Virus record (IMG/VR): IMGVR_UViG_3300029957_000006
Coordinates: 1 to 64,000 of that record
Origin: a virus
Direction: 5' to 3' (one strand)
DNA length: 64,000 nucleotides
The notes under the pieces are model-generated. The model was given only the letters and a program-made list of their open reading frames with translations, ran no database searches and was not told where the DNA came from. Positions 40,913 through 45,877 of the stretch are shown here, piece after piece. How positions within the stretch are numbered: position 1 is the stretch's first letter; each line of letters starts with the position of its first letter. A program made the position numbers and the translations under genes.

Positions 40913-41665
40913 TTATTTTAATGTATTTGGGTATTCCATTTTCAGTGCTTCTAATTTTGCAACTAGAATTTTTGCAATCCAAAAATCTCTATACCATTTA
41001 TTATCAGCTGGAACAACATTCCATTTTATCTTTGATTCATTGAAAATTCTCTCGTAGACTTTCATGTAATCATCCCAAAGCTTCGATTCAATCAAGTCAT
41101 TGGCATTATACTTCCATTTCTTCTCAAGTGATGTTGCACGTTCTTTAAATCTAGCTACTTGTTCCTTCTTGGAAATATGGAGATAAAATTTGATAACATG
41201 TGTATTGTTATCTTCAAGCATTTCTTCAAAATTATTGATATGTTTATAACGTTTTTCAATAACTTTCTCTGGGAAGGTTTTATGAACACTAGGATAAAGA
41301 ATATCTTCGTAATGTGATCTATTGAATATTTCAATATTACCCTTTGAAGGCATGAGATTATGAATACGCCATAAGTAATCTTTTGATGCTTCAAAATCAT
41401 TTGGAGCCTTGAATGAATGGACATTTACTGCCATTGGATATAACCCATGATAAAGCTTATCAACTGTACTATCTTTACCAGCTGCATCAACACCTTGTAA
41501 CACAATTAGAATTGAATGTTTAGATTCAGCTCTCATTGTTTTATGAAGTTGTTCCAGCTTGATGTAAAGCTTTGCTGTCTCAGCCTTAATAGTTTCTTTA
41601 TCAAGTGCTTTTGGTGCTTTTGTGGAAATCTTATTTAGCATTTTATAATTTTTTATACCCATCAT
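40913..41665 (-). CDS. ppk2: Polyphosphate kinase 2 family
   Basis: QG.DAAGKD, FKAP, FNRSHYED, KWK...D, VPADNKW. Confidence 0.92.
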   Translation of the reverse strand: MMGIKNYKMLNKISTKAPKALDKETIKAETAKLYIKLEQLHKTMRAESKHSILIVLQGVDAAGKDSTVDKLYHGLYPMAVNVHSFKAPNDFEASKDYLWRIHNLMPSKGNIEIFNRSHYEDILYPSVHKTFPEKVIEKRYKHINNFEEMLEDNNTHVIKFYLHISKKEQVARFKERATSLEKKWKYNANDLIESKLWDDYMKVYERIFNESKIKWNVVPADNKWYRDFWIAKILVAKLEALKMEYPNTLK

Positions 41666-42127: not shown

Positions 42128-42643
42128 TCATACTAAAAAACTCTCCAATAAATTTTTGTAATTTTCTTCATCATTTTTTATCACACCAAATAAACGAGCA
42201 GCTATTGGTCTATAATTGTTTCGTTTATCCTCTTTAAATAATTCTTGGGTCCATATTGATGGAAATGTTTCTTTATTAAACCATAAATAAAGCAATGACG
42301 CATATCTATCAGCTATTATTTCTTCGCCAACGACATGCTCAAAAAAGGTTTCAAAATTTTCAGCTGATAATGCTTTGATTAAAGCTTCTTTACCCATCTT
42401 CTGTATGCGTTTATAATGGGCAATCTCGTGTAAAATAACATAGAATATTATACTATCATTATAGCGATTCAATTCCTCAGAATTAATGAATAGACCATAC
42501 ATTGTTGCAACACCAAGAGTATTGAATTTAATCTTTCTGTCTTTAAAATCAATCCCTGAAGCTTCCATAAATTCAAGTAACTTCTTGAAATTATGCCTTC
42601 CATTCTTTTTTGTCAATGCTATTTTCAAGGATTTATCAATCAT
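42128..42643 (-). CDS. Zincin-like (HExxH) protein
   Basis: ILHEIAH...E..AD; start moved to 42643, 4 nt after -7 box. Confidence 0.6.
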   Translation of the reverse strand: MIDKSLKIALTKKNGRHNFKKLLEFMEASGIDFKDRKIKFNTLGVATMYGLFINSEELNRYNDSIIFYVILHEIAHYKRIQKMGKEALIKALSAENFETFFEHVVGEEIIADRYASLLYLWFNKETFPSIWTQELFKEDKRNNYRPIAARLFGVIKNDEENYKNLLESFLV

Positions 42644-42704
42644 CATACAAAGGTACAAATAAAAAAGCAATTATCCAAATGTAATCCTTTGATGAAATTA
42701 AAGA

Positions 42705-42731
42705 ATAACCACGGTTATTTGCCGTGGTTAT
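42705..42731. terminator. 10-bp hairpin ATAACCACGG/CCGTGGTTAT
   Basis: Spans the stop of the HAD gene. Confidence 0.55.
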
Positions 42732-43260
42732 CACTTAGTACAAAATTGATTTTAAAATCAGTGAGTCTCCCACTTAGACATTTCTCTTTGCCCCAAGCTT
42801 CAAACACTGGGATATGTTCTAAACGATCATCCCACATTTCAACACTAGTAACTGATTGATGTTCGTCCAATAGCTTGTTAAGTGTTTTAACCTTAGCTAT
42901 TTCAGTTGCACCACCTTTGTTAAAATGATGACCATCAAAGGTCAAGCCTTTAATTTCAAGGATATCCCTAACATGATCAGCCAAGTGTTGTAGACGACCA
43001 GTCAACATAATAACACCTGTTTCAGGTAATGCTCGTTCTTTCTCGTAATCTGCAATGACAAGTGGATTGGATGGCATATCAAAGATTCTATGATCAAGTG
43101 ATTCCTCTCGACCCCACCAACCTTTATGTGGCCATTCTTTGCCAGTCTTTTTCTGAAAGTGCAGCTTTCCCGTCTCAGGCAATGGTGTATTAATAAGCGT
43201 TCCATCAAAGTCGAAGATGGCCAATTTAGTTATTTTTCTTGTATTTCCAAAGGTATCCAT
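42715..43260 (-). CDS. HAD phosphatase, Swiss-Army-knife RNA-repair-like
   Basis: FDFDGTL, WW..ESL, MLTGR, K, WDDR.EH. Confidence 0.8.
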   Translation of the reverse strand: MDTFGNTRKITKLAIFDFDGTLINTPLPETGKLHFQKKTGKEWPHKGWWGREESLDHRIFDMPSNPLVIADYEKERALPETGVIMLTGRLQHLADHVRDILEIKGLTFDGHHFNKGGATEIAKVKTLNKLLDEHQSVTSVEMWDDRLEHIPVFEAWGKEKCLSGRLTDFKINFVLSDNHGK

Positions 43261-43918
43261 AAGCTGTTTTTGATTTTTTTGTTAAATTCATACTAATATT
43301 TTTTCTAGAAAAACCTAATTCTTCCTCCACATCTTTAGCACTTTTCCATTCTTTAATTTGTTCACCATCTAAATTATATTGAATTATGGGTTTTTTAATA
43401 CTTTCAGCGTTATTACTAATCCAAATTTCATTTTTTATTATTTTTCTTCCTTTAGATTTTTCACAAGCTAATTTATGTGCTGATGTGCTACCTGTTTTTT
43501 TTCTAGTTTCTGAAATTAATTTTTTTGTTTCTTCAGTGTGTTTTTTATAAACCTTTGTTTTATTATAAGCTATTATTTTCTTACGATGTTCATCACTTAT
43601 TTTTCTACCAAATCCACCATCACCACCTAAAGTTAAATTAATACCATTTTCATTACTCCCATGAAATGAATTGAAAAATCCAATATAAAAAATTTCTAAC
43701 TCATTTAATTCGATTAATGTATTTTCGCCTTCATATATTATTTCAAATGTATGACCACTAAAACCATGCTTTGATAATGAATTAAATAAAAGTGGTTGTT
43801 TTTTACATTTTAATCGTCTATAATAATCAATCCTAAGAGTTAAGTTAGTTGTTTTTCCAATATAAATTCGACCAGTTGGTGATGTTATTTTGTAAATGTA
43901 TCCATATTTCTTTTCCAT
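43226..43918 (-). mobile_element. GIY-YIG homing endonuclease with NUMOD3/NUMOD1 repeats
   Basis: GYIYKITSPTGRIYIG, N.TLGGDG, H.EETKKLIS, KPIIQY.LDG...AYGYLW; start ATG 43918 after ATATTTAT. Confidence 0.88.
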
Positions 43919-43956
43919 AAACGAGTTTATTATAAATATCTCGTTTTTTATCAAAA

Positions 43957-44010
43957 TCAAAATAATGTGCCATCAAAATCAAATATCGCTAGTTTTGTAA
44001 AGGTTGTCAT
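43957..44010 (-). pseudogene. Orphaned 17-codon N-terminus of the HAD gene (MTTFTKLAIFDFDGTLF*)
   Basis: Hand translation; ATGA overlap with upstream gene stop; 12 aa identical to HAD at 43230-43195. Confidence 0.85.
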
Positions 44011-44374
44011 TTTATATGTAATTTTTTTAATATTCTTTGCATTAATGTTAATGGTGGTGGTTCCAATAAAGAACCATATATACGCTTTGTTGCACTTCCT
44101 ATGAGGATTTTAGTTATTGGACCATGAGCATTTATTGCATTCTTTAATGCACCATTAATCTTTGTTGTTGTTACTACTTTTATCTTTTTTAACTGTTCAA
44201 TGGTAGCTAAATTATCTTTCTCATATTCATCAACAAACATCAGTATTGCTTCAATATCAGTTGAACTAACCTTATTTTTTAAAGCTTGTTCCAGTTTATT
44301 TTGTAATTTGCCACGTCTTGTTTTAAATTTCATCTTTGACAAAGGTAGTGATTTATTTTCATTTTTCCAAATTT

Positions 44375-44872
44375 TTAATATAAACGATTAAACCAAGATT
44401 GTCTTGATCTTTCTTCATTTATTTGATGTATTTCTCGTTGAATTCTGTCTTCCTGTTCCTCATGTAATCTTCTGATCATGTCATTTCTATTTGGTGAAGG
44501 ATTTCCAGAATATATATAATCCATGTAAACAAGTTGACCTGTTGGACCATCCATTGGTTGAACTGAAATTAAATCATTTGAAAATGTATTAGGAACAAAA
44601 TTTGAAATTAATGGAAAAAAGGCTTCAATGGTTTTCCAATAAAATTCAAGATCGATATCTCCTTTTATCCAAACAGCCCAATCATTTATTATTTTCTTGA
44701 CGATTTCAGCATCAAGAAAAAATATTATAGAAAGTTCATTAACTAATCTTTCTGCATATATTGGTGCTTTATGTCTTCTGGTATCACTTAATTCATAGAT
44801 ACCATCATTTCCTATGTCACTAATTCCAACATAGTAGTGTCTGGTGAGGTATGATCGTACAAGGTTTTCCAT
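44375..44872 (-). CDS. Paralog-family domain fused to a T4 gp23 (major capsid) Gol-like segment
   Basis: PN....D...VQPMDGPTGQLVYMDY; ATATTTAT upstream. Confidence 0.65.
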   Translation of the reverse strand: MENLVRSYLTRHYYVGISDIGNDGIYELSDTRRHKAPIYAERLVNELSIIFFLDAEIVKKIINDWAVWIKGDIDLEFYWKTIEAFFPLISNFVPNTFSNDLISVQPMDGPTGQLVYMDYIYSGNPSPNRNDMIRRLHEEQEDRIQREIHQINEERSRQSWFNRLY

Positions 44873-44908
44873 GTACAATCATAGCGATTTTCAATAAATA
44901 TGTAAAGT

Positions 44909-45403
44909 TTATTTGTTACTTTTAGGCTTAAGAGTAACAAACATTTTTTTACCTTCCATTGAAGGCATTGCTTCTGGAACACCATACTCTTCTACTGATA
45001 CGATAACCTTTAATAAAAGAGCTTTACCATTATCAATATAAGACATTTCACGTCCTTTGAATTGCATGCTAATCTTTACCTTATGACCTTTTTGAAGGAA
45101 TTCTATCATGTGTTTGAGACGATAACTCAAATCATTTTCAGAAGTATTTGGACCAAGTTTTATCTCTTTCATTTCAAGAGTTTTATTCTTTGGCTTTTTA
45201 CCCAATTCATAAATGAATTTTTCATAATTCATAATCTTACAAACTGGTGGTACAGAATGTTCATTGATTAAAACCAAATCCATTTCTTTTGATTCAGCTA
45301 ATGCAATTGCAGAATCCAAGGACATGATTCCACCTTCTGTTACTCGTACTTCATTTGCTCTGATTTCTCTATTAAGCAAATGTTGTTTTTTCTTTTTGTT
45401 CAT
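44909..45403 (-). CDS. infC: Translation initiation factor IF-3
   Basis: N.EIRA.EVR, DLVLI....PPVCKIM.Y.KF.YE, KEIKL.P, FL.KG.KVK....FKGRE. Confidence 0.93.
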   Translation of the reverse strand: MNKKKKQHLLNREIRANEVRVTEGGIMSLDSAIALAESKEMDLVLINEHSVPPVCKIMNYEKFIYELGKKPKNKTLEMKEIKLGPNTSENDLSYRLKHMIEFLQKGHKVKISMQFKGREMSYIDNGKALLLKVIVSVEEYGVPEAMPSMEGKKMFVTLKPKSNK

Positions 45404-45877
45404 TTATTTCACTTTGTTTTTTAAGTATTCAACTAATTCATCGTAAGTCTTAACTTGATCAACACCATATTTCTTACAAACGATATCAACGTTTCCTTTT
45501 CTCCAAAATCCTTCTGGACAAAGAACAACCATCTTTTTAGTTCTAGCATATAATCCTAATTCCAATAATGAAATAGGTGATTCGGTTTCTGGATCAAAAT
45601 ACATAACAACAATGTCACACATTTCAAGTCCATCCAATTCCCATGTTACTTGTCCATTAAAGTTTTTGTCTGTGATCTTTTGTTTCCAGCTAGAATCCCA
45701 ATCTTTTCGTCTTGGATTTAAGAAAACAAATGGTTTACTCTGCAATTCTTTTATTATTTTTTTCTGCCAGTTTTCAGCTAGGCCCATTTCAATGGAACCA
45801 GCTAGGAATACAGATGTGAATCCTTTTTCTACTTTCACCTCATTAGGTGGTTGTATTTCTATTGCTTTACTCATCAA
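45404..45877 (-). CDS. Nucleoside 2-deoxyribosyltransferase-like
   Basis: VFLAGSIE...W, NPRR, QV.WEL, SPISLLELG. Confidence 0.85.
   Translation of the reverse strand: MMSKAIEIQPPNEVKVEKGFTSVFLAGSIEMGLAENWQKKIIKELQSKPFVFLNPRRKDWDSSWKQKITDKNFNGQVTWELDGLEMCDIVVMYFDPETESPISLLELGLYARTKKMVVLCPEGFWRKGNVDIVCKKYGVDQVKTYDELVEYLKNKVK

Follow-up and report, generated by a model that had tools for sequence, protein, structure and literature searches.

Introduction

The closest mechanistic match to the element described here is provided by the WHO elements of Torulaspora and Lachancea yeasts. The element is a GIY-YIG homing endonuclease gene located within the first codons of a HAD phosphatase gene, in a stretch of 64,000 nucleotides of viral DNA (positions 1 to 64,000 of IMG/VR record IMGVR_UViG_3300029957_000006) that we refer to as the window; the record is a 124-kb entry judged to be 35% complete, and is probably a fragment of a very large phage. 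We interpret the locus as a free-standing homing cassette that has entered the start of the phosphatase gene, with the gene kept whole by a second start, and put the probability of this reading at about 0.8. WHO elements home into FBA1, and each integration replaces the gene's 3′ end; the former end stays behind as a fragment that acts as a homology arm, the replaced end is resistant, and repeated homing nests the fragments (Coughlan et al. 2020, PMC7282813). As in the phage locus, the WHO nuclease gene lies beside its target, the gene end is replaced by the copy of another allele, a fragment remains beyond the nuclease and no splicing is involved. However, it is the 3′ end that is replaced in the yeasts and the 5′ end that is replaced here, so that a new start codon is required; the WHO nuclease is an intein-derived LAGLIDADG/zinc-finger protein, whereas the phage enzyme is of the GIY-YIG type; and the WHO elements act in yeast nuclear genomes at meiosis, with cleavage and allele specificity shown experimentally, whereas the phage case is read from sequence alone.

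A second group of counterparts is formed by the mORF gene hybrids of fungal mitochondria, found in atp6 of Allomyces macrogynus and in atp6, atp9, cox2 and nad3 of Glomus sp. (PMC3630166), and the fungal mitochondrial analogy proposed in the initial annotation of the window holds. As here, an endonuclease open reading frame (ORF; LAGLIDADG, or GIY-YIG in atp9) and a diverged copy of the gene end are inserted in the coding region, and the native end is stranded; the native end is nearer to the allele of a relative than is the inserted end, and the same is seen in the pair of phage loci L004 and L005 described below. The fungal cases differ in being mitochondrial, in concerning the C-terminal end, and in that the inserted end and ORF are often in frame with the gene; they show neither start-codon donation nor a regulatory hairpin.

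The Seg and Mob enzymes of phage T4, which are associated with 'intronless homing', share with the window locus a GIY-YIG domain, candidate NUMOD-type modules, sporadic presence, a target in a conserved neighbouring gene, co-conversion of flanking DNA, a hairpin at the start codon and an ORF that overlaps its neighbours (PMC2988022). The T4 enzymes, however, lie between genes, or split a gene into two working pieces as Aeh1 mobE does with nrdA, whereas the cassette described here is inside a gene and has a duplicated start. In the T4 scheme the hairpin hides the start site in early transcripts, and an internal late promoter, which is within the start-codon hairpin, frees it (same source); for the hairpin in the window the likeness is one of analogy only. 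I-TevI represses its own synthesis via an operator that mimics its homing site (PMC2988022), and a target-like word, TTTTGATTTTGA, is similarly conserved just upstream of the box and hairpin that precede the phage nuclease gene; the likeness is limited in that only 12 bases are target-like here, binding is hypothetical, and the word may be the relic of an older stub. The string 'duplicat' is absent from this T4 review, and in the literature covered (including PMC10448857, PMC12724721 and PMC2988022, with subscription journals outside that coverage) we found no report of a phage in which a homing endonuclease stands next to a gene end that has been duplicated or replaced.

A duplicated gene start around a homing endonuclease gene

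The upstream gene, the stub, the nuclease gene and the HAD gene are all on the minus strand, and in reading order the cassette consists of the old start stub (parts a and b′), the word a″ (TTTTGATTTTGA), a hairpin with an AT-rich box, the nuclease gene, a replacement copy of the first codons (a′) and the body of the HAD gene. The upstream gene (44007..44342) encodes a 111-residue protein that belongs to no Pfam or PHROG family and ends in ...ATAAAATGA; its TGA overlaps the stub ATG (ATGA). Its position on the left of the HAD gene is conserved in most relatives, and at nuclease-free loci its homologues directly abut that gene. The stub (43957..44010), reading MTTFTKLAIFDFDGTLF and then a stop, is a 17-codon ORF representing the old start of the HAD gene, and occupies exactly the place of the native start in nuclease-free relatives, where it likewise overlaps the stop of the upstream gene. 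It comprises part a, the TKLAIFDFD codons (43998-43972), and part b′, the GTL codons (43971-43963). Just 38 non-coding bases separate the stub stop from the nuclease ATG, and there are none after the nuclease gene, an intact ORF of 230 codons (43226..43918). The HAD phosphatase ORF (42715..43260; 181 residues, starting MDTFGNTRKITKLAIFDFDGTLINTP) begins inside it: the new start, MDTFGNTRKI (43231..43260), is encoded in another frame of the last nuclease codons, with its ATG within the TAT GGA of an A-Y-G-Y motif, and the ACT AAA codons of the HAD gene share bases with the TAA (43228-43226) that ends the nuclease gene. There follow the replacement copy a′ of the TKLAIFDFD codons (43204..43230), with 19 of its 27 bases as in the stub and the same residues, and the gene body from the GTL codons on (42715..43203), which is related to PF10307 (HAD_SAK_1) and to polynucleotide kinase-like PHROG members.

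The residues TKLAIFDFDGTL (n = 12) are identical in the stub and the HAD gene, with 9 of the 12 codons differing and 25 of the 36 bases alike. The stub, the ATGA coupling, the restart of the HAD gene inside the nuclease 3′ end, the twelve identical residues and the nine differing codons had been described in the initial annotation, and all are confirmed letter for letter. Because the second copy of the first codons is joined in frame to the gene body no splicing is needed, and the gene is maintained without an intron, an intein or splicing. Both junctions are bridged, with zero differing letters, by contigs of three of four other sequencing runs, although these runs may share the campaign of the source; the arrangement is thus not a chimera of a single assembly.

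The nuclease matches the Pfam GIY-YIG family PF01541 at 24.9 bits (cut-off 22.6) and PHROG 314 'homing endonuclease' with an expectation value (E) of 9e-28; its matches to NUMOD1 (19.6 bits, cut-off 22.8) and NUMOD3 (17.1 bits, cut-off 20.4) are both below threshold, and the nuclease of a relative, L110, is above it for NUMOD1 (27.5 bits) and I-HmuI_NUMOD-like (31.8 bits). Residues Y9, Y19-I20-G21, R29, E75 and N89, the putative equivalents of the I-TevI catalytic residues, are invariant in four cassettes. The only match to a solved structure is of 38 residues to T4 endonuclease II (E 0.005). The HAD protein matches HAD_SAK_1 at 35.7 bits against a cut-off of 25.6 and retains 30 of the 30 residues, including the DxD motif, that are invariant among 12 homologues, indicating that the gene is intact; D17, D19, G20, T21, T87-G88-R89, K123 and D145 are invariant in these 12 homologues, four nuclease-bearing ones included.

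The same design in other phage lineages

Two surveys address how often this arrangement occurs. The first, which began from the HAD and upstream proteins, gave, once 16 duplicates had been dropped, a set of 45 distinct loci whose HAD identity was 40% or more. Three of these (L004, L006 and L036) carry the nuclease, and each has a stub, reading MDKITKLAVFDFDSTLVVK, MINIKKISVFDFDGTLF and MEKRKLSVFDFDGTYF respectively before the stop, and a HAD gene that restarts at MDT... or MHMDT.... At the 42 nuclease-free loci there is not one DxD-containing stub, and the upstream gene mostly ends in a stop codon that directly overlaps the HAD start, just as it overlaps the stub ATG in the window. A metagenome contig of 2245 bases (L092), below the 40% HAD line, has the same layout visibly preserved with frameshifts in all of its genes; since the frameshifts affect every gene, sequencing error is likelier than decay, and it is not counted as a dead cassette.

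The second survey began from the nuclease and found 15 loci at 53–75% identity, representing 10 distinct sequences and, together with the window, 11 lineages. All 11 (nuclease identity at least 53%) have a gene with a DxD[GS]T start directly downstream of the nuclease, whereas none of 12 more distant nuclease relatives (identity at most 49%) has a DxD[GS]T motif within 400 bases on either side. The stub ORF is intact in 10 of the 11, that of L113 being degenerate (MKRN, then a frameshift), and all 11 nuclease ORFs are intact, at 206–277 residues. With the arrangement found again in 10 further distinct lineages, chance is not an explanation.

The left junction is uniform in all of the lineages, the stub ending one to four codons past D-x-D-[GSK]-T, and the right side is more varied. 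In eight lineages with intact frames the HAD start lies within the last nuclease codons, seven of them using A-Y-G-Y and L113 using other codons of the 3′ end. L103 has AYKY instead and its own ATG just after the nuclease stop, and L099 has a whole second N-terminus of 34 codons following a spacer, with the ATG after the nuclease stop. The fixed point is therefore the DxDGT site, and the replaced piece always spans from the gene start to that site.

Two target families are represented, the PF10307-type HAD proteins and a family of 134–137 residues found in L110 (FDYDGTLSRPDVQEY...) and L113 (MDFDSTMSRKDVQEY...), which share 39% identity with each other. The second family has no Pfam match, the L110 target protein has no PDB match, and its likeness to HAD proteins is one of motif and of language-model neighbours only (HAD or 5′-nucleotidase clusters, 0.88–0.91, to be regarded as a lead). 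What both families have in common is the DxD word. We note that the nucleases associated with the second family (L110:410-1216 and L113:1501-2334) are longer by 40–50 residues and carry at the C terminus an additional helix-turn-helix-like module, perhaps a sign of altered target recognition.

Insertion point in a near-isogenic pair

The insertion is best delimited by comparing L004, which has the nuclease, with L005, which does not. Over the 1229 bases upstream the two are 100% identical as far as the stop codon that ends the upstream gene, and their HAD genes share 94% identity. Part a of the L004 stub (the TKLAVFDFD codons) matches the native start of L005 at 26 of 27 bases and b′ matches at 6 of 9; the working copy a′ of L004 (the TKLAVFDLD codons) matches at 20 of 27, with the next 20 bases identical. 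Differences are thus concentrated in a′, where 7 of 27 bases are changed, as against 19 of 482 over the remainder of the gene (Fisher p 1.8e-4). The stranded start of L004 resembles the resident allele and its working start is foreign. By this alignment the foreign DNA in L004 is b′–nuclease–a′, placed between the GAT and the GGT of the codons for DxD and GT, and the location within the DxDGT codons proposed in the initial annotation is borne out by the pair. At this one site the nuclease is present in L004 and absent from its relatives L005, L046 and L042. The contiguous gene that was predicted for a relative without the insertion is found in L042, which is nuclease-free and reads MDKITKLAVFDFDGTLIMTP, directly overlapping the upstream gene, where L004 has MDKITKLAVFDFDSTLVVK and a stop. 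Two further pairs, L103/L050 and L099/L068, were considered for the same purpose, but with an identity of only about 81% they are too distant for a tract of 27 bases to be mapped.

Horizontal movement of the cassette

Comparison of four lineages shows that the nucleases share 63–75% identity in all pairs, whereas the HAD proteins share 39–65%, and only 39–43% in pairs with L036. In the nucleotide alignment of L004 with L103 the upstream sequences are unrelated (about 35%); identity is 87–93% in a stretch that starts inside the stub and takes in most of the nuclease gene, and is 55–70% in the HAD gene. The GC (guanine plus cytosine) fraction of the cassette is 0.24–0.30 regardless of that of the flanks (0.22–0.40). 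When the two target families are compared in L105 (PF10307-type) and L110 (second family), a block of high identity begins at TTTTTGATTTTGAG, spans the hairpin and extends over the nuclease gene's first 60 bases; as this block starts only at a″ and the upstream flanks are unrelated, the stubs lie outside the shared segment.

These comparisons bear on the idea that the locus is a passive scar, in which the nuclease is ordinary, domesticated or inactive with a target elsewhere, and a single illegitimate recombination duplicated the gene start and was then inherited. Consistent with this, the duplicated tracts show nothing beyond neutral divergence (see below). Vertical descent, however, fails to explain the same design in unrelated upstream contexts, the two target families with upstream flanks and stubs outside the shared block, a nuclease identity far exceeding that of the host gene, and presence or absence between near-identical genomes, and all 11 of the nuclease ORFs are intact; we regard it as improbable.

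The left end of the cassette

The word a″ (43951..43962; minus strand) is the cassette-borne left end in the window, an out-of-frame second FDFD-coding word that contains the stop codon of the stub, and occurs in exact form just once in the 64 kb. A corresponding word, TTTTGATTT[TC]GA, follows the stub in each of the ten lineages whose stub is separate, never with more than one change; in L113 the a″ word is the stub itself. This a″ word may be the relic of an older stub carried along at a change of target, an extra copy recalling the nested fragments of WHO elements (PMC7282813), and by analogy with the I-TevI operator it may have been retained through binding of the enzyme.

To the right of a″, a hairpin with arms AAACGAG and CTCGTTT (43919..43946, minus strand) ends beside the nuclease ATG and has a conserved box, GATATTTATAATAAA (43940-43926), in its loop, for which the consensus is ATATTTAT(T)AATAAA. 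A hairpin that ends at or includes the nuclease ATG is present in 10 of the 11 lineages, with six different arm sequences. In single-sequence folds it is well supported in L006, L099, L103, L105, L106 and L108, where 0–2 of 200 shuffles are as good, and weak in the window, L004, L036 and L113, where 16–28 of 200 shuffles fold equally. The hairpin and box probably limit translation of the nuclease, by analogy with T4 I-TevI, segB and mobE.

Divergence between the two starts

The initial annotation took the synonymous recoding of the first codons as a sign that the nuclease carries a cleavage-resistant replacement. The recoding itself stands, in that about 25 of 36 bases are alike and the residues are the same, and its extent does not set it apart. 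At nine loci the stub and the working copy share 23–29 of 36 bases (mean 25.4), and 741 random pairs of nuclease-free alleles from different phages also have a mean of 25.4. Since divergence within a locus equals that between random alleles, it fits a foreign origin of one copy, and no selection for resistance is needed. The longest identical run between stub and working copy is at most 8 bases in all nine loci, with a random median of 8; such short runs would also hinder loss of the cassette through recombination between the repeats. The first Asp codon is GAC in 8 of the 9 working copies and 2 of the 9 stubs; among empty alleles we count it in 17 of 41. This is a lead only, as the cassettes are not independent.

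Several observations weigh against our interpretation, or against parts of it. First, as judged from these alignments, the spelling differences do not testify to selected resistance: at almost all synonymous sites of the presumed target the nuclease-free alleles already vary, no base is diagnostic of restored copies, and the a′ tracts of the nine cassettes are alike at 18.2 of 27 bases, no better than random alleles, with about 19 of 27 for the stubs and for pairs within a locus. Secondly, the high-identity block shared by L004 and L103 ends at the nuclease 3′ end and excludes a′, so the replacement copy is not always co-inherited with the nuclease; the claim that the nuclease carries its replacement 5′ end holds for L004/L005, with its foreign a′, and not for L004/L103, and the case for co-inheritance is that of the single pair L004/L005. 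Thirdly, the window has no near-isogenic nuclease-free relative, the best HAD identity among viral and metagenome contigs being 65%, and its cassette borders are accordingly set by analogy; nor is there a nuclease-free joint in the four sequencing runs compared, whose contigs, with their partial word shares, are uninformative about its absence, and no RNA sequencing run was found that contains the locus. Fourthly, the window hairpin is not significant alone (z -1.49; 16 of 200 shuffles), RNAalifold gives 0 consensus pairs for the 11 spacers, their arms being out of register, the box is not recurrent in the window (3 matches, with 1.8 expected), and the spacer between stub and nuclease yielded no sigma-70-like promoter; with no promoter and a non-recurrent box, a 'late promoter' is no more than an analogy. 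Finally, a duplication without the nuclease had been named beforehand as the observation that would speak against a homing insertion. While DxD-containing stubs are lacking from all 42 nuclease-free HAD loci, one locus (L029) does have a short stub without an adjacent GIY-YIG gene, which fits the decay of an older cassette.

A model for spread and its alternatives

A model for the spread of the cassette can be drawn from the L004/L005 pair and from analogy with the yeast WHO elements and the T4 Seg and Mob enzymes. During a mixed infection the nuclease would cut nuclease-free alleles at or near the DxD-GT(L) codons, the most conserved DNA of the gene, and the break would be repaired off the cassette-bearing genome, its right end pairing with the gene body and its left end with the stub of the donor and whatever lies upstream. 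The recipient's own start would thereby become the new stub, and b′–a″–nuclease–a′ would be copied in. The resident genome would escape cutting because neither target-like copy would be whole: the stub would consist of the native left half, with the right half lost after 9 bases, and in the restored copy the native right half would be preceded by a left half with altered spelling. Each resident copy being half native and half altered, a long recognition site would be broken, and resistance would follow in this way.

The alternative that survives best is that the nuclease came with a complete foreign HAD gene, such that the resident remnant is the first 16 codons only and there is no short replacement 5′ end. 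This differs from a homing cassette with a short replacement start in the length of the tract only. The stub and restored copy are as unlike as alleles of unrelated phages, as it would predict, and the window lacks a near-isogenic empty allele by which the tract could be delimited. The HAD gene in the window also has a GC fraction of 0.37–0.42, compared with 0.24–0.31 for the stub, the cassette and both flanks; however, the HAD gene is richer in GC than its flanks at nuclease-free loci too (10 of 10 examined), and its third-position GC in the window (0.30) equals that of the flanks. Import of a whole gene, when argued from GC, is thus unsupported, HAD genes being GC-richer than their flanks everywhere. 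Moreover, in the sole pair for which it can be measured, L004/L005, the foreign tract is just about 27 bases. We consider import of the whole gene unlikely, if a serious contender.

If the insertion were spliced out, whether as a group I intron, a group II intron or an intein, or were bypassed by the ribosome, the gene would be restored exactly, given that the stub ends at most one codon from the point at which the second copy resumes. We nevertheless reject this as scarcely credible. A search of 42500-44500 on both strands gives no match to any intron family at E up to 10, and the 38 non-coding bases leave no room for an intron, in agreement with the initial annotation. The nuclease is read in a different frame that is closed by stops on either side, and so is unfit for an intein. 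In addition, every lineage keeps an in-frame duplicated start with an ATG of its own (34 codons in L099), which would serve no purpose in a gene from which the insertion is removed.

Within the homing interpretation, a more far-reaching and tentative proposal is that this clade of nucleases recognises a short DNA word for the HAD nucleophile motif F-D-F-D, and not one particular gene, and that its TTTTGATTTTGA copy serves both as an operator for self-repression and as a seed that captures the broken target end. Were this so, the cassette would be a self-contained, motif-guided element for gene-start replacement, hopping among unrelated members of an enzyme superfamily, and at each hop a stub and a functioning start would arise anew. 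Some of the synonymous variation that nuclease-free alleles show in their DxD codons would in that case reflect an arms race, the GAC bias of the first Asp codon being an example.

Other occupants of the junction and neighbouring genes

The beginning of the HAD gene appears to be a hotspot at which several families of nuclease have inserted. In nuclease-free relatives a 71–73-residue ORF without a PHROG match is located at the same gene start (L005:3787-4008; also L007, L046 and L029). It uses the native MDKI start codons overlapping the upstream gene, the HAD gene restarts at MKNI, and its stop TAA overlaps the same ACT AAA codons as does the nuclease stop; it is a second, unrelated insertion that likewise re-creates the gene start. 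L033 has an HNH endonuclease gene (L033:1789-2400; 203 residues, PHROG endonuclease VII) between the upstream gene and the HAD gene, overlapping the HAD start. In L029 (L029:4327-6800) the short stub, MKNITKLS and a stop, is followed by about 30 bases that resemble the left end of the GIY-YIG cassette and, further on, by a 2.2-kb insert with a 313-residue ORF (by eye similar to an insertion sequence transposase) and an HNH fragment; the first 60 or so codons of its HAD gene are unlike those of its relatives. Another occupant of the junction is a 280-residue hydrophobic ORF between the upstream gene and the HAD gene in L016 (L016:3180-4022), L049 (L049:193-1038) and L050 (L050:1025-1867).

In the window, the HAD gene is followed by a terminator-like hairpin on the minus strand (42704..42732) with 11 pairs and then a T-rich tail. 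In an annotated phage collection the HAD protein has matches of 30–39% only, in five huge uncultured phages. Upstream of the cassette, a minus-strand gene (44375-44878) encodes a 167-residue protein with a 46-residue match to the N-terminal part of the Pfam Gp23 major capsid protein (28.7 bits, cut-off 24.4), and in relatives its place is taken by one to three tandem paralogues (e.g. L012:2210-3649). Other minus-strand ORFs resemble, by eye, translation initiation factor IF-3 (44909-45403), nucleoside 2-deoxyribosyltransferase (45404-45877) and polyphosphate kinase 2 (40913-41665). A second GIY-YIG gene of 209 residues, 34% identical to the first, lies in the same record just past the window end, at about 64.2–64.9 kb (L003:1489-2118), and adjoins a convergent 318-residue gene; a duplicated gene end was not noticed there.

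Discussion

The phage cassette works like the gene-end-replacing elements of fungi and yet is not a member of them, as it replaces a 5′ end rather than a 3′ end. Three contrasts with the known systems stand out: the 5′ end is replaced, the start codon often comes from the last codons of the nuclease, and the setting is a phage. To these systems the case adds 11 lineages, two target families, a near-isogenic empty allele, a mapped insertion point and a conserved target-like word at the left end.

The known ways for a homing endonuclease gene to sit harmlessly inside another gene are introns or inteins and the splitting of the gene. Replacing the start of the gene, with a start codon donated from the last codons of the nuclease, would be a third, and the finding of this 5′ version among phages in about a dozen lineages and two target families suggests that it evolves easily wherever recombination is frequent. 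There are also consequences for annotation, in that short orphan ORFs beside nuclease genes can be stubs and N-terminal extensions of neighbouring genes can be frame-shifted nuclease codons. With an enzyme of about 230 residues, a target of about 40 bp, and natural sensitive and resident alleles, the locus provides a compact system in which it could be tested how homing is shaped by the spelling of the target, by operator mimicry and by homology arms, at a target that is an active-site-encoding word common to a huge enzyme superfamily.

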